Positions 4,516 through 57,603 of a DNA stretch of 64,000 nucleotides are shown here, piece after piece. The first letter of the stretch is position 1. Every line of letters begins with the position of its first letter. The notes under the pieces are model-generated. The model was given only the letters and a program-made list of their open reading frames with translations. It ran no database searches and was not told the origin of the DNA. Source of the DNA: Escherichia coli (GTDB lineage Bacteria > Pseudomonadota > Gammaproteobacteria > Enterobacterales > Enterobacteriaceae); the NCBI RefSeq assembly GCF_013315695.1, contig NZ_CP054353.1; one strand, given 5' to 3'. The position numbers were made by a program, and so were the translations under genes.

Positions 4516-4592
4516 GGAGCGGTAGTTCAGTCGGTTAGAATACCTGCCTGTCACGCAGGGGGGCGCGGGTTCGAGTCCCGTCCGTTCCGCCA
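4516..4592 (+). tRNA. aspU: tRNA-Asp (anticodon GTC), distal tRNA of the rRNA operon
   Basis: GGAGCGGTAGTTCAGTCGGTTAGAATACCTGCCTGTCACGCAGGGGGGCGCGGGTTCGAGTCCCGTCCGTTCCGCCA; differs by one base (G at 4562) from the second tRNA-Asp copy at 13517..13593. Confidence 0.93.
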
Positions 4593-4632: not shown

Positions 4633-5272
4633 CGTCTATATTTCTATTATTGCTTAAATCGCAAAAATCCTCTGCGTTTTACGCCCTTTTTCCGCAACAT
4701 TCTAAAGCCCATAATCACTTCAGTTAACGAAAATAGCATTAAAAGAGGCATATTATGGCTATCCCTGCATTTGGTTTAGGTACTTTCCGTCTGAAAGACG
4801 ACGTTGTTATTTCATCTGTGAAAACGGCGCTAGAACTTGGTTATCGCGCAATTGATACCGCACAAATCTATGATAACGAAGCCGCAGTAGGTCAGGCGAT
4901 TGCAGAAAGTGGCGTGCCGCGTCATGAACTCTACATCACCACTAAAATCTGGATTGAAAATCTCAACAAAGCTAAATTGATCCCGAGTCTGAAAGAGAGC
5001 CTGCAAAAATTGCGTACCGATTATGTTGATCTGACGCTAATCCACTGGCCGTCACCAAACGATGAAGTCTCTGTTGAAGAGTTTATGCAGGCGCTGCTGG
5101 AAGCCAAAAAACATGGGCTGACGCGTGAGATCGGTATTTCCAACTTCACGATCCCATTGATGGAAAAAGCGATTGCTGCTGTTGGCGCTGAAAACATCGC
5201 TACTAACCAGATTGAACTCTCTCCTTATCTGCAAAACCGTAAAGTGGTCGCTTGGGCTAAACAGCACGGCAT

Positions 5273-5281
5273 CCATATTAC
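5273..5281. repeat. IS1 target-site duplication, left copy (CCATATTAC)
   Basis: Identical 9-mer at 6050..6058 directly flanking the other IS1 end. Confidence 0.9.
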
Positions 5282-5336
5282 GGTGATGCTGCCAACTTAC
5301 TGATTTAGTGTATGATGGTGTTTTTGAGGTGCTCCA

Positions 5337-5612
5337 GTGGCTTCTGTTTCTATCAGCTGTCCCTCCTGTTCAGCTACTGACGGGGTGGTGCGTAACGGCA
5401 AAAGCACCGCCGGACATCAGCGCTATCTCTGCTCTCACTGCCGTAAAACATGGCAACTGCAGTTCACTTACACCGCTTCTCAACCCGGTACGCACCAGAA
5501 AATCATTGATATGGCCATGAATGGCGTTGGATGCCGGGCAACAGCCCGCATTATGGGCGTTGGCCTCAACACGATTTTACGTCACTTAAAAAACTCAGGC
5601 CGCAGTCGGTAA
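5337..5612 (+). CDS. insA: IS1 InsA (transposition inhibitor / DNA-binding protein)
   Basis: 91 aa [37 protein letters not shown]... zinc-finger-like N-terminus. Confidence 0.9.
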
Positions 5613-6034
5613 CCTCGCGCATACAGCCGGGCAGTGACGTCATCGTCTGCGCGGAAATGGACGAACAGTGGGGCTATGTCGGGGCTAAATCGCGCCAGCG
5701 CTGGCTGTTTTACGCGTATGACAGGCTCCGGAAGACGGTTGTTGCGCACGTATTCGGTGAACGCACTATGGCGACGCTGGGGCGTCTTATGAGCCTGCTG
5801 TCACCCTTTGACGTGGTGATATGGATGACGGATGGCTGGCCGCTGTATGAATCCCGCCTGAAGGGAAAGCTGCACGTAATCAGCAAGCGATATACGCAGC
5901 GAATTGAGCGGCATAACCTGAATCTGAGGCAGCACCTGGCACGGCTGGGACGGAAGTCGCTGTCGTTCTCAAAATCGGTGGAGCTGCATGACAAAGTCAT
6001 CGGGCATTATCTGAACATAAAACACTATCAATAA
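5531..6034 (+). CDS. insB: IS1 InsB frame (transposase made as InsAB' fusion by -1 frameshift)
   Basis: ORF in -1 frame relative to insA; slippery AAAAAAC at 5589..5595 in the insA/insB overlap. Confidence 0.85.
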
Positions 6035-6049
6035 GTTGGAGTCATTACC

Positions 6050-6058
6050 CCATATTAC
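6050..6058. repeat. IS1 target-site duplication, right copy (CCATATTAC)
   Basis: Identical to 5273..5281. Confidence 0.9.
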
Positions 6059-6331
6059 TTCCTATATGACGCTGGCGTATGGTAAGGCCCTGAAAGATGA
6101 GGTTATTGCTCGTATCGCAGCTAAACACAATGCGACTCCGGCACAAGTGATTCTGGCGTGGGCTATGGGGGAAGGTTACTCAGTAATTCCTTCTTCTACT
6201 AAACGTAAAAACCTGGAAAGTAATCTTAAGGCACAAAATTTACAGCTTGATGCCGAAGATAAAAAAGCGATCGCCGCACTGGATTGCAACGACCGCCTGG
6301 TTAGCCCGGAAGGTCTGGCTCCTGAATGGGA

Positions 6332-7246
6332 TTAAGCCTCTCTGACAGCTCCTCCGGGAGCTGTTTTTACATGCTCGCTAAGGAAATCGATAAAAGCCCG
6401 GATGCGTGTACTTACCGCACGGTCGCTGTAATATACGGCACTGAATGGCATTTCCACTGGCAATACTTTATCTGCCATTAACTCCACCAATTCTCCGCGA
6501 GCGATTTCTCTGTCGATCATGTAGTCGGACAAACACGCAATCCCGTTGCCACTCAGGCAAAGCTGTTTCAGTGTTTCCCCACTATTGGATGACAAACCGT
6601 ACTTCACCTCATGTAATTGTCCATCGCTACAGGCTATCGGCCAGGTATTGAGGGAAGCGGGTTCAGTGAATCCCAGGCAAACATGTTGCTTTAAATCGTC
6701 GATCGTTTCTGGCTTCCCGTAGCGGGAAATATAATCGGGGGAGGCGATAATTTTTCGATAACTGTTAAATAACGGCCTGGCACGTAAGCTGGAATCCGTT
6801 AACGTACCGGCGCGTATCGCGACATCCACTTTTCTTTCGATCAAATTAATAATTGTTTCGGAGGAGACTAGTGATAAAGTGACTTCCGGATAGCGTTCAC
6901 GGAAAGGCTTAATCAACGGCATCAGAAAGTGCAGCACCACTGGAGTTGCGGCATCGATGCGCAACAGTCCACGCGGTGTATTACGCGTCTCCATAATTTC
7001 TGATTCTGCCGCTGCCATCTCCTGCAAAATTGACTGTACGCGACGAAAATAACGCTCGCCTTCTTCCGTCAGGCTAAGTTGCCGCGTGGTCCGATTAAGC
7101 AGGCTAACGCCAAGTTTCATCTCCAGCTTTTTCACCGCCCGGCTTACCGCTGAGTTTGCTTGCCCTAATTGTTCCGCTGCCCGGCTAAAGCTGCCGCTTT
7201 CGACGACCGAAACAAAAATGGCGAGTTCTTCCGACGTGGCTTTCAT
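6332..7246 (-). CDS. yafC: LysR-family transcriptional regulator
   Basis: 304 aa; N-terminal HTH ([23 protein letters not shown]) and LysR substrate-binding domain. Confidence 0.9.
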
Positions 7247-7435: not shown

Positions 7436-8287
<852 letters not shown>

Positions 8288-13516: not shown

Positions 13517-13593
13517 GGAGCGGTAGTTCAGTCGGTTAGAATACCTGCCTGTCACGCAGGGGGTCGCGGGTTCGAGTCCCGTCCGTTCCGCCA
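13517..13593 (+). tRNA. aspV: tRNA-Asp (anticodon GTC)
   Basis: GGAGCGGTAGTTCAGTCGGTTAGAATACCTGCCTGTCACGCAGGGGGTCGCGGGTTCGAGTCCCGTCCGTTCCGCCA. Confidence 0.96.
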
Positions 13594-20894: not shown

Positions 20895-21725
<831 letters not shown>

Positions 21726-26423: not shown

Positions 26424-26696
26424 TTAATGCACCAGCAGGGCGGCCTGACTAAACAGATGAATGCAGAGATCATGCAACTGGATAATCATCCATTTGCCGC
26501 ACACCCCCAGCACCACCAGCGTGACAATCAGCCTTGGCAAAAAGCTCAGGGTCTGTTCGTTAATCTGCGTCACCGCCTGGAACACGCTCACCAGCAGGCC
26601 GACCAGCAGGCTTGGCACCACCAGTACCGAAACCAGCAAAATCACTACTTTAATGCCGCTGGCGACAATGTCGGCGGCTACGTCTACGGTCAACAT
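26424..26696 (-). CDS. lfiQ: Flag-2 export apparatus protein, FliQ homologue
   Basis: 90 aa, two TM helices. Confidence 0.9.
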   Translation of the reverse strand: MLTVDVAADIVASGIKVVILLVSVLVVPSLLVGLLVSVFQAVTQINEQTLSFLPRLIVTLVVLGVCGKWMIIQLHDLCIHLFSQAALLVH

Positions 26697-28841: not shown

Positions 28842-28926
28842 TGTAGGCCTGATAAGAGGCGCAGCGTCGCATCAGGCATCGGTGCACAATTGCCGGATGG
28901 CGGCGTAAACGCCTTATCCGGCCTAC
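28842..28926. repeat. REP/BIME element in lfiM-lafK divergent intergenic region
   Basis: TGTAGGCCTGATAAGAGGCGCAGCGTCGCATCAGGCA ... TTGCCGGATGGCGGCGTAAACGCCTTATCCGGCCTAC. Confidence 0.8.
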
Positions 28927-36079: not shown

Positions 36080-38521
36080 TGACGATTCCTTGCCCGCCAA
36101 CGCCTCCACAATCACCATCGTCGCCCGTTCTCCCGCCTTGCCATCCATAAACGCATCGCAATAGTGATGACGAATCTTCGTAAGCCGCGCCTGCACCGCC
36201 CCCCAGTCAAACGCCTCTGACAACAAGTAACGCAACTCTGCCATATCATGAGCCACCGGCAATATTTCGCGGATTTGCTGATCGGCGCTCTCCGGCGTGG
36301 AGTAGCTTTTCTCGCCGTCGAGCAATTCACTCATGCCCGGAAAGTCGAGCAGGATCACCCGCTTATCAACGTGGATAGCATCGAAAATAAAGCCGCTGTT
36401 ATCGGTCAGCACGTAATCGGCCTTTGCCAGCAGCGCCAGCGTGTGACGGGCGGAGTCGGTGCGCTGTTTTAAATGCCTGCGAGCCAGGGCCAGCGATGCA
36501 GCTTCTTCCGGGCGCGAGCAGGTGCCGTGGTGCAGTTTGCAAATCAGGTTCACATCATCGCTTAAGCGCCCCAATTTTTCTGCCCAGTGGGGCAGGGAGC
36601 TTAATGCGCCAAACGTTGGGGCGTAGAGTACGGTGGGTTTACGCTCGTCCAGTTTGATATTTTCCGGCAACGCGCGGTCGAACGTGGCGTTATGCCAGGC
36701 GTCGAAGCGCGGGTTGCCGACCACTATTGCGTTGCTGAGGTGCGCCAGCGCCTGCTGGCTGTAGTGGCTGTAACACAAAATGCGCTGATAAAAACGGTTC
36801 CAGTCGGCGTGGTTCCACGTTTCTTTGGCTAAGCCGTACATGGCGCGAATGTTCAGGGGGGAAAGGCCACTGAGCGCAGGCGTGTGATAGGGGCTGACCA
36901 GGCATTTTACTCGCTGACCGTGTGCCTGCATTTCTGACAGACGCATACCTTTAAGCTGCGGATCGTCGATGTTTTTCAGTGTTTCCAGCATCTCATCCAG
37001 AAACGGTTTAAACACGCGGTCATTGATCACCAGTGTGCAGCTCTGCCCCTGCGCCTGCAGGGCGGTGATGATTGGGCGGTAGAGCGCGTAGTGGAATGAG
37101 GTTTCCATAAAAAAGCCGATGGTATCGGCGATAGGTAATGTAGATGGCTTGGTGGCTACGGGTAACTTATTGAAGTAGTGGTTAATGTTATCAGTCGCTT
37201 TTTTCTCGATATCACTAAAGCCCGGTCGCTGATAACAAAGGCTCGGGTAACAGGCCAGCCATTTGTCGGTGCGCAGCAGCGGCTGCCAGCCGTCTTCCAG
37301 CGAATGCTCATCGTTGTTCATCTGCTGCGCCAGCTGCGGGTAGTAGCGGCGGTTCACCAGATAAGCGCACACTTTGCGGCAGTCCCGCGCGTGCACCAGC
37401 CCAGGCAAACTTTTTAGCATCGTTCCCTGCGAAATTTCGCCGCCGAGGATCATCACCTGCCAGGGAATTTTCGCCAGGCTCGCCAGCAGCGCGTTCAGCA
37501 CCTGAATATGTTTCTCCTGTTTGAGAATAACCGCGTCATCTTCCAGCAGCAGGTAGTTTTGCCAGCCGCGTTGTTGCGCCAGACGCAGTGCCTGCAAGTG
37601 TGATTGCTGGCGGCCCCGTTGACCGTTTTCATTTTCACTGGCGGCAAGGCGGGTGATCTTCTCAGGAGGAATATGCAGCAATGTGAGTTCTTCACGGATC
37701 TGCTGTAAGCGATCCGGGCGTTTATCCAGATTCAGCAGAACGATCTGATCGATCGCCTGATGATGAGTGGCGTTATGCAGACTCAGATAAGCATTGCGGA
37801 GCAGCGGATCGCGGACGATATCCGTAAGCGTCGCGTTTACTGGCGTGCTGGCCCCGAGAATAAAGTCTTTATCAAAGGTGTTGTGGCTGTGCGAGATACA
37901 CAAAATCGTGCGCTCGCCGGGCAGTTGTAGCGGGTTAACGCTGAAATTGTCGGTGAAACTTTTCTCTTCGCCTAAATTGCAATCGTCATCGTAGCGGTGC
38001 TTTTTCAGGTAGTTACGGTGATAGCAAAAGGTGCCGTTGAGGATGTTATGCGGGCCGAAGCTGCGGCTTTGAAAGATGCGATTGATGTGGCTGTACCAGA
38101 TGGGGATCTGGTCGGAACCGGAGATGAGCGCCCGGTTTTTTTGCATCATAGCGATGGTGTAAGAGATTTTATCTGCCGGGTAGTAGTCGTCATCGTCCAT
38201 GCAGAGGATGTATTCGCCGCGCGCCAGTTCGTTGAGCATATTGCGTTTTTTGCCCAGCGGCAGTTTTTCCGGGTGATGGATGTAGCGGATGTTGAAGGCT
38301 TCCGGTGTGCCATTGGTCAGGCGGTCGATGATGTGTTGATGGCTTTGCGGGGAATCGTCGAGGATGATGAGTTCGCGGCGGTCTGCCGGGTAGTCCTGAT
38401 AGCGGTACATATAAAGCAGGTACGGCAGGAATGCGCTGCGGTTCCAGGTTGGCGTGACGACGCTGACGGACGGTTTTTCGCGCTGGGTGGCGAGTGTTTT
38501 GATAATGGTTGGTGTTGGCAT
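36065..38521 (-). CDS. Large multidomain glycosyltransferase: N-terminal GT2 domain, central GT25-like domain, C-terminal CDP-glycerol glycerophosphotransferase (TagB/TagF-like) domain
   Basis: GT2: VSVVTPTWNR...ILDDSP...CMDDDDYY; GT25-like: IVLLNLDKRPDRLQQI...YLLLEDDAVIL; TagF-like: VLYAPTFGALSS...VLTDNSGFIFDA; start set to ATG 38521 (MPTPTII), track start 38593 is GTG inside a repeat. Confidence 0.75.
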   Translation of the reverse strand: MPTPTIIKTLATQREKPSVSVVTPTWNRSAFLPYLLYMYRYQDYPADRRELIILDDSPQSHQHIIDRLTNGTPEAFNIRYIHHPEKLPLGKKRNMLNELARGEYILCMDDDDYYPADKISYTIAMMQKNRALISGSDQIPIWYSHINRIFQSRSFGPHNILNGTFCYHRNYLKKHRYDDDCNLGEEKSFTDNFSVNPLQLPGERTILCISHSHNTFDKDFILGASTPVNATLTDIVRDPLLRNAYLSLHNATHHQAIDQIVLLNLDKRPDRLQQIREELTLLHIPPEKITRLAASENENGQRGRQQSHLQALRLAQQRGWQNYLLLEDDAVILKQEKHIQVLNALLASLAKIPWQVMILGGEISQGTMLKSLPGLVHARDCRKVCAYLVNRRYYPQLAQQMNNDEHSLEDGWQPLLRTDKWLACYPSLCYQRPGFSDIEKKATDNINHYFNKLPVATKPSTLPIADTIGFFMETSFHYALYRPIITALQAQGQSCTLVINDRVFKPFLDEMLETLKNIDDPQLKGMRLSEMQAHGQRVKCLVSPYHTPALSGLSPLNIRAMYGLAKETWNHADWNRFYQRILCYSHYSQQALAHLSNAIVVGNPRFDAWHNATFDRALPENIKLDERKPTVLYAPTFGALSSLPHWAEKLGRLSDDVNLICKLHHGTCSRPEEAASLALARRHLKQRTDSARHTLALLAKADYVLTDNSGFIFDAIHVDKRVILLDFPGMSELLDGEKSYSTPESADQQIREILPVAHDMAELRYLLSEAFDWGAVQARLTKIRHHYCDAFMDGKAGERATMVIVEALAGKESSGICR

Positions 38522-56518: not shown

Positions 56519-57603
56519 ATCCGGCATTGCTTGCCACGCTCGGAACACTTGCGGAAACGGCGTCGCTGAAAGCGGATATTTTACCGCCGGTGAGTAGTGA
56601 AAACGCGCCCGCGTTTACCCTGCCGAAAATGGCGGTCGCGGCGGTGGCGGAGCGCGTTCATAGCGCTAAAACCAGTCAGCATCAGGCGACGCGCCCGCAG
56701 GAGAACGATCCGGTGGCGATGCAGGCGCTAATGGCGCTGTTACTTCCGCAACCTGCCGCGCCGCATCAGGACACGCCGCAGCCGCGAAACGTCGCAACAT
56801 CGCCGGTTATCCAGCAATTGACGAAAGCGGTGGTGCAAAACGCGCCGCAACGCCCGACGCAGCAGCAGGAACTCACGTCGTTGCCGCCGCAGTTGCAGGA
56901 ACTCACGTCGTTGCCGCCGCAGTTGCAGGAACTGATCGGTCAGTTGCCGCAGGCGAAACCCGAACAGCAGGCCAGACTGGCGACTTACGCCAGTGACGAT
57001 TTACATGCCATTGCGCCGACGCAGCCGCGCGTCTCAACACCGCCAGCTCGCCCGAAACCTGAACTACCCCGTGTGAACGCGCGCCCGCAGGTCGAGCGTA
57101 AAACGGAAAAAGTGCCGGACAGCGAACCGGTTATTGCGCGTGCGGTGTTGCAGGTTAAGACGCCGGATCTGGTCAGCGAACATCATGAGATTGTCGCCAA
57201 ACCAGCCACGCTTTCGATGGACGAACTGGGCGAAAAACTGACGACGCTGTTGAAAGATCAGATCCACTTTCAGCTCAACAAACAACAGCAGATCTCCACC
57301 ATCCGTCTCGATCCACCGTCGCTTGGCAAGCTTGAGATCGCCGTACAACTCGATAACGGCAAACTGATGGTGCACATCGGCGCGAACCAAAGTGAAGTTT
57401 GCCGCGCGTTACAACAGTTTAGCGACGATCTCTGCCAGCATTTGACGGCGCAAAATTTTATGGAGGTGAACGTACAGGTTTCCTCCGAAGGGCAGTCGCA
57501 GCAACAACAGTCGGGCCATCAGCAGGAAGAGGTGAGTGCCGCCTTACAGCTTGATGATGCGCCTCAATTTCAACAGAACGAATCCGTTTTGATCAAAGTG
57601 TAA
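56515..57603 (+). CDS. lafE: Flag-2 hook-length control protein, FliK homologue
   Basis: 362 aa; Pro/Gln-rich central region; conserved C-terminal FliK domain; contains in-frame 30-bp tandem repeat. Confidence 0.8.
   Translation: MNPALLATLGTLAETASLKADILPPVSSENAPAFTLPKMAVAAVAERVHSAKTSQHQATRPQENDPVAMQALMALLLPQPAAPHQDTPQPRNVATSPVIQQLTKAVVQNAPQRPTQQQELTSLPPQLQELTSLPPQLQELIGQLPQAKPEQQARLATYASDDLHAIAPTQPRVSTPPARPKPELPRVNARPQVERKTEKVPDSEPVIARAVLQVKTPDLVSEHHEIVAKPATLSMDELGEKLTTLLKDQIHFQLNKQQQISTIRLDPPSLGKLEIAVQLDNGKLMVHIGANQSEVCRALQQFSDDLCQHLTAQNFMEVNVQVSSEGQSQQQQSGHQQEEVSAALQLDDAPQFQQNESVLIKV
56866..56925 (+). repeat. Perfect 30-bp tandem direct repeat (2 full copies plus 8 bp) inside lafE
   Basis: CAGGAACTCACGTCGTTGCCGCCGCAGTTG x2, encoding QELTSLPPQL twice. 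Confidence 0.92.

Follow-up and report, generated by a model that had tools for sequence, protein, structure and literature searches.

An IS1 element with a 9-bp target duplication splits dkgB in a sub-lineage of Escherichia coli

The insertion sequence IS1 has been described as a 768-bp element with imperfect terminal repeats and a weak promoter that partly overlaps its left end, IRL (PMC12428005). Production of its transposase InsAB' requires frameshifting at an A6C motif, its target duplications measure 8 or 9 bp, and in BW25113 over 99.9% of IS1 transposition is due to the sequence type represented by IS1A and IS1E (PMC12428005). In E. coli, glyoxal and methylglyoxal are also substrates of five aldo-keto reductases (AKRs), among them YafB/DkgB, which act besides the glyoxalase system and YqhD (PMC5297802). 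Here we describe how IS1 and dkgB meet in what we call the window, i.e. the whole 64-kb stretch of E. coli DNA that was analysed. Like the IS1A and IS1E copies of K-12, which represent the 'consensus' IS1, the element in the window is 768 bp long, ends in identical inverted repeats, encodes an identical InsA, and has the same A6C motif and insB' frame, but while K-12 IS1A adjoins nhaR, the present copy lies within dkgB. The dkgB (yafB) gene of MS 21-1 and of K-12-type strains, encoding 2,5-didehydrogluconate / methylglyoxal reductase B of the AKR superfamily, is found in the same aspU-dkgB-yafC-yafD order as in the window. In those strains, however, it is uninterrupted, whereas the gene in the window is broken within codon 176 and present as fragments only. 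The surroundings read 16S-tRNA-Ile-tRNA-Ala-23S-5S-tRNA-Asp-dkgB-yafC-yafD, which is the standard rrnH/aspU neighbourhood.

The element occupies positions 5282..6049 on the plus strand, in the same orientation as dkgB, and fills the gap between two copies of the 9-mer CCATATTAC, a left one at 5273..5281 and a right one at 6050..6058. A preceding sequence-only reading had reported a 768-bp IS1 with intact inverted repeats and with 9-bp direct repeats at exactly these places, and both statements hold. The two 9-mers are identical on re-inspection, and the repeat finder returned them as a 100% direct repeat whose copies directly abut the ends of the IS, the same 9-bp duplication as has been described for IS1 (PMC12428005). 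CCATATTAC occurs twice in the whole 64-kb window, both times at the IS1, compared to an expectation of 0.37 copies per window from shuffled sequences. The left arm, IRL (GGTGATGCTGCCAACTTACTGAT; 5282..5304, plus strand), and the right arm, IRR (GGTAATGACTCCAACTTATTGAT on the reverse complement; 6027..6049, minus strand), form a 23-nt imperfect inverted repeat with 18/23 positions matching, i.e. 78% complementary. A search with an IS1-end pattern recovered precisely these two arms, 5282-5304 on the plus strand and 6027-6049 on the minus strand, with 0 mismatches and at a chance expectation of 0.00 for the window, and the 64 kb thus hold a single IS1.

Its coding content is that of a complete element. 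The insA gene (5337..5612, plus strand) has 91 codons and a GTG start, and its product, the repressor and DNA-binding protein, is identical over 91 aa to K-12 InsA and matches the IS1/IS1595 zinc-binding domain NF050000 in a profile search. At 5588..5594 on the plus strand, the A6C motif (AAAAAAC) provides the programmed -1 frameshift site through which insA and insB' are joined into the InsAB' transposase, of which the insB' frame (5593..6034, plus strand) encodes the catalytic part; this -1 frame belongs to an ORF at 5531-6034 and is open to its stop. When the -1 frameshift is modelled, the resulting InsAB' fusion has 232 aa, is free of internal stops, and scores 245 bits against NF033558 (IS1 family transposase, transpos_IS1; cutoff 100) over profile positions 1-199 of 199. 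A promoter-like site for insA, CTGCCA-16-TATGAT, was found at 5289-5316, where it overlaps IRL, and it was the sole plus-strand site in our consensus scan. Length, inverted repeats, overlapping frames with an A6C site, the transposase model and the 9-bp duplication all place the element in the IS1 family. Compared to K-12 IS1A (NC_000913.3 19796-20563), 767/768 positions are identical, the sole difference being a G for the T of K-12 at IS position 444, which replaces Ser by Arg in InsB'. Because of this near-identity to IS1A/E, the active type according to PMC12428005, the copy in the window would be of a transposition-competent type and is probably still mobile.

On either side of the element, dkgB can be followed in two fragments on the plus strand. 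The 5' fragment (4755..5281) holds codons 1-175 and ends two bases into codon 176, and the 3' fragment (6059..6335) takes up the last base of this codon and runs to the stop codon. The insertion point lies after nt 527 of the coding sequence, at the second base of codon 176, which is within one base of the split after codon ~176 that had been proposed for this aldo-keto reductase gene. Once IS1 and one of the 9-mers are taken out, 4755-5281 continues in frame into 6059-6335, and the resulting ORF has 804 nt and 267 codons, as expected if the two fragments once formed a single dkgB. The protein reconstructed in this way supports the earlier naming of the gene, since it matches the DkgB equivalog NF008377 over its full length (positions 1-267 of 267) with 529.2 bits against a cutoff of 327, while the score against the DkgA model, 226 bits, stays under the cutoff of 425 for that model. 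Taken separately, the N-terminal fragment matches NF008377 over residues 1-178 (350 bits), and the C-terminal fragment over profile positions 174-267 (171.6 bits). The reconstruction further matches Pfam Aldo_ket_red (PF00248) over residues 8-250 (E = 6.6e-53), and among proteins of solved structure its best relative is 3up8 (E = 1.6e-63), which is described as a 'putative 2,5-diketo-D-gluconic acid reductase B'.

What is left of the gene would no longer amount to a reductase. The upstream ORF (4755-5303) runs six codons into IRL, ending in the tail VMLPTY, and stops at 5303, yielding a product of 182 aa. Upstream of IS1 lie three conserved AKR motifs, AIDTAQIY (with Asp34 and Tyr39), TTKIW (Lys64) and LIHWP (His97), and based on the position of these motifs in the AKR superfamily, we take the four residues to be the putative catalytic tetrad. 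Downstream of IS1, from residue 219 on, lies a putative cofactor-binding segment of 13 residues, which presumably binds NADPH. A DkgB protein would be expected to have an uninterrupted frame with both the tetrad and the cofactor-binding C-terminus. As the frame is broken within codon 176, and the catalytic motifs and the cofactor segment are on separate sides of IS1, the locus is a dkgB pseudogene rather than a functional member of the DkgB family. The (beta/alpha)8 barrel would be cut after about two-thirds and parted from its cofactor clamp, and should be inactive.

To see the site without its insertion, the flanks were joined into an empty-site query of 4,124 nt, from which IS1 and one 9-mer had been removed, and searched in 5,426 complete RefSeq E. 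coli genomes. At least 80% of this query was covered in one place in 5,415 of the 5,426, and in MS 21-1, AF14 and AF10 it was found at ~100% and in a single piece. Alignment to an uninterrupted dkgB, by which the sequence-only reading could be checked, gave 804/804 identical positions between the reconstruction and the annotated gene of MS 21-1, which carries one CCATATTAC. This exact empty site with its single 9-mer shows decisively that the insertion caused the duplication, and also that no deletion or rearrangement took place at the site. The nearest named strains outside the IS-bearing group are Rb-50, CE10, IAI39 and SMS-3-5, at 99.1-99.3% identity for the empty-site query. IAI39, CE10 and SMS-3-5 (99.1-99.2%) belong to phylogroup F, which suggests that the lineage of the window may lie in phylogroup F as well.

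Searching the same 5,426 genomes with 300-nt queries spanning the junctions, we found both IS1-dkgB junctions fully covered in two of them, AF3 (NZ_OZ547117.1; UK, blood culture) and MSB1_4I (NZ_LR898874.1; Australia, rectal swab). In both, the 786 bp made up of IS1 and the two 9-mers match the window exactly, at the same point and in the same orientation. RefSeq annotates the locus in these two genomes as 'dkgB, incomplete, missing C-terminus', an IS1A-family transposase with 'programmed frameshift', and 'aldo/keto reductase, incomplete, missing N-terminus'. Over the first 11.4 kb, both records depart from the window at 4563 and 7468, and a few further differences are private to each of them; the window is a third genome, from an isolate or assembly separate from AF3 and MSB1_4I. 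The 182-aa product allows carriers to be recognised more widely and is diagnostic, because its sequence requires IS1 to be located exactly at this site of dkgB and in this orientation. An exact-protein look-up in NCBI, ENA, JGI and Logan placed it on 128 contigs (181 index blocks), compared to 241 contigs for the identical intact DkgB protein allele, with contigs not de-replicated in either count; its sources include E. coli KTE69 and KTE143 (NCBI) and one JGI metagenome. Among the further loci that were fetched, the left junction was identical in 10/10, and the right junction in all 9 that were long enough to include it. The IS1 itself was identical at 768/768 positions in three of them and carried a single change, G401A, in one, while the rest have scaffold gaps within the IS; the private bases of the window were found in none of the 10. 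The allele dkgB::IS1 is already known, in that it is annotated in public records and has been sampled more than 100 times, and our literature search found no paper naming dkgB together with IS1.

For the region downstream, 49.6 kb of ungapped alignment were compared between the three IS-bearing genomes (the window, AF3 and MSB1_4I) and the three nearest IS-free ones (MS 21-1, AF14 and AF10). The IS-bearing genomes form a clade, with 9 SNPs and a 15-bp indel in common against the IS-free ones, and pairwise distances over these 49.6 kb are 6-12 SNPs within the IS-bearing group, versus 27-31 from IS-bearing to IS-free. From this distribution we conclude that the insertion was very probably a single event, vertically inherited by an established, intercontinental E. 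coli sub-lineage. Its absence from more than 99.9% of the complete genomes makes it young relative to the species, but its age is only loosely bounded, since some of the within-clade SNP counts may stem from assembly errors. The 'recent strain-specific event' of the sequence-only reading does not hold as phrased: the insertion is young for the species, but it is not private to the strain, given that its junctions are found in AF3 and MSB1_4I, its product on 128 contigs, and the 9 SNPs and the indel in all three genomes. 'Clade-specific' is the term that fits dkgB::IS1. The lineage is also IS1-rich, with at least 40 IS1-matching places in each of AF3 and MSB1_4I, compared to a median of 10 over the genomes and to just 384 records that reach 40 or more, and an IS1 insertion in dkgB is therefore unsurprising. 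A second IS1 event near dkgB, in strain IH5, was considered and rejected, as dkgB is annotated as intact in this strain and the two-piece match arose from a chance join. In IH5 (NZ_CP168949.1), an unrelated urinary isolate, moaA-E, ybhL and a truncated ybhL-like fragment lie upstream of the intact dkgB and replace rrnH and aspU, pointing to a large rearrangement that has a breakpoint immediately before this gene.

The bases by which the window stands apart deserve a description of their own. Position 4563 falls in the tRNA-Asp gene aspU (4516-4592) and is a G, in contrast to the T found in the second copy of the window, aspV (13517-13593), and in all close relatives that were examined; by our own count, the base belongs to the variable loop and is tRNA-Asp position 47. 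Both ARAGORN and Rfam still classify this copy as a normal tRNA-Asp(GTC), and the exact 77-nt allele is present in 110 of 5,428 E. coli records, so that we are dealing with either a minor allele or a consensus error in a G-run, recurrent in either case. At 7468, in the yafC-yafD spacer, the window has a C for an A, beside a GAGG motif that precedes the GTG start of yafD by 15 nt, unlike every relative compared at that site. Two further positions, 45047 and 60097, are private with respect to all five compared genomes over the 49.6 kb, and both are synonymous: 45047 affects codon 4 of the lateral-flagellar flgG, and 60097 affects codon 134 of lafU. Positions 7468, 45047 and 60097 show that the window represents a further member of the clade.

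The window also contains a complete Flag-2 lateral-flagellar cluster (~22,400-60,600), which extends from flhA/lfhA to lafU and includes lafA, a sigma-54 activator, a FliA-like sigma factor and motA. Of this cluster, K-12 is known to keep only lfhA and lafU remnants. It is also present in the annotated relatives, and no frameshifts were seen relative to AF3, in which all of its genes are annotated as intact. The 15-bp indel is located at 37760 in the large glycosyltransferase gene of the cluster, where the three IS1-bearing genomes lack the 15 bp relative to MS 21-1, AF14 and AF10; the CDS remains in frame, at 2457 nt in IS1-bearing genomes versus 2472 nt, and the indel serves, next to IS1, as another marker of the clade. 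In the Australian MSB1_4I, a deletion of 243 bp, equivalent to 47394-47636 of the window, turns the lateral-flagellar flgI into a pseudogene, whereas the window and AF3 are intact at this point. AF14 and AF10, for their part, lack 30 bp of the lateral-flagellar fliK (56876-56905), with a CDS of 1059 nt versus 1089 nt in the other three genomes, as well as 9 bp of fliQ (26502-26510). Both changes are in frame, and the difference in fliK may represent repeat-length variation. Finally, four matches to Rfam naRNA4 (RF02564), at 21644-21721, 28846-28923 and 48073-48267, correspond to repeat elements of the REP/BIME type, and one of them is near rayT, the gene of a REP-associated tyrosine transposase.

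Taken together, we are highly confident that the locus goes back to one transposition of an IS1A-type element into codon 176 of dkgB in the ancestor of the sub-lineage, followed by vertical inheritance, with DkgB being lost. A single IS1 of the IS1A type would have jumped once into this NADPH-dependent aldo-keto reductase gene, in a host ancestral to one E. coli sub-lineage, to which IAI39, CE10 and SMS-3-5 are the closest named strains at this locus. Staggered cleavage of the target CCATATTAC and its repair would have produced the 9-bp direct duplication. The reductase would thereby have been split into the 182-aa N-terminal piece, with the putative catalytic residues Asp34, Tyr39, Lys64 and His97, and a promoterless C-terminal piece with the cofactor-binding segment, and a functional DkgB could no longer be made. 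Passed down vertically, the lesion would by now have become a clade marker on several continents. IS1 is rarely excised precisely. Structurally, this is a textbook case of simple IS1 insertion, and nothing observed speaks against it. The anatomy of the locus, its exact empty site, its distribution in the clade and the family memberships are shown directly, while the loss of activity, the near-neutral effect on fitness and the continuing mobility of this copy are inferred.

Could the insertion instead be very recent and private to this strain? The perfect duplication, an IS1 that carries no disabling mutation, and the fact that carriers make up just 2 of 5,426 complete genomes would all agree with it. 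Yet AF3 and MSB1_4I, from which the window differs at its private SNPs, have the identical IS1 and duplication, the junction protein is present on 128 contigs from independent projects, the IS-bearing genomes lie 6-12 SNPs apart per 49.6 kb while having the clade-defining changes in common, and one copy at the site has already acquired the point change G401A. We regard a private insertion as very improbable. Much the same improbability attaches to the idea that the site is a hot spot which IS1 has hit independently and convergently in different strains. IS1 favours AT-rich targets, and the G+C content around the target, 42.5%, is indeed lower than the 46.4% of dkgB as a whole, but repeated hits would hardly have yielded the same position, orientation and 9-mer in every occurrence examined, nor would they be confined to genomes that are each other's closest relatives and have 9 SNPs and an indel in common. 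Moreover, there is no IS1 at the site in the other ~5,400 genomes, most of which do carry IS1 (median of 10 matching places). As genomes of this lineage carry many copies of IS1, each genome having at least 40 matching places, and such repeats are a classic source of misassembly, one might also suspect that repeat collapse has misplaced an IS1 in dkgB. An artefact of this kind would not be expected to be flanked exactly by a target duplication or to restore dkgB precisely upon removal, and the same structure recurs in complete genomes assembled independently from long reads, as well as in over 100 further contigs, which leaves the chance of an assembly error vanishingly small.

A further possibility is that the insertion is adaptive or regulatory rather than a neutral knockout: loss of DkgB might be beneficial, convergent transcription into yafC might be altered, or IS1 might drive the 3' fragment. 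Immediately downstream, yafC (6332..7246, minus strand) encodes a LysR-type regulator as an intact ORF of 304 aa; it is convergent with dkgB and overlaps its last 4 bp, and such an arrangement would lend itself to an effect on yafC. The allele has also persisted and spread, with 128 contigs versus 241 for the intact protein allele, and dkgB expression has been reported to be under selection during glyoxal stress (PMC5297802). Against this, hitch-hiking in a successful clone predicts persistence equally well, and the contig counts are not de-replicated. In addition, the consensus scan found no outward promoter at IRR, neither toward the 3' fragment of dkgB nor antisense to yafC, and expression of either from IRR was dropped as a candidate, the sole plus-strand site of that scan being the insA promoter in IRL. 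Both yafC and its terminator-like hairpin, located on the minus strand at 6298-6265 inside the kept 3' fragment of dkgB, are untouched; the yafC protein, WP_000648583.1, is annotated in IS-bearing and IS-free relatives alike, and no further gene follows dkgB in its transcription unit. Side effects of IS1, whether polar or activating, are therefore not indicated. We therefore consider an adaptive or regulatory insertion unlikely, and that dkgB::IS1 aided the success of this extra-intestinal sub-lineage, either through the handling of glyoxal and methylglyoxal or by removing convergent transcription into yafC, is if anything slightly more doubtful.

Under the single ancestral transposition that we favour, the consequence is likely no more than the loss of DkgB, a non-essential detoxifying enzyme and one among several reductases with redundant activity on glyoxal/methylglyoxal. 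A mild phenotype would be expected, since five overlapping AKRs, the glyoxalase system and YqhD act on these compounds, and judging from the functional overlap of the other reductases, the effect on fitness would be near-neutral. The IS-bearing lineage lives without one of its five overlapping glyoxal/methylglyoxal reductases, and dkgB::IS1 provides a PCR-able marker for one E. coli sub-lineage, with ~1.1 kb across the site versus ~0.3 kb. Beyond such bookkeeping its significance is small: it adds one further example of IS1 activity in an IS1-rich background, and raises no new question on IS1 or on aldo-keto reductases.
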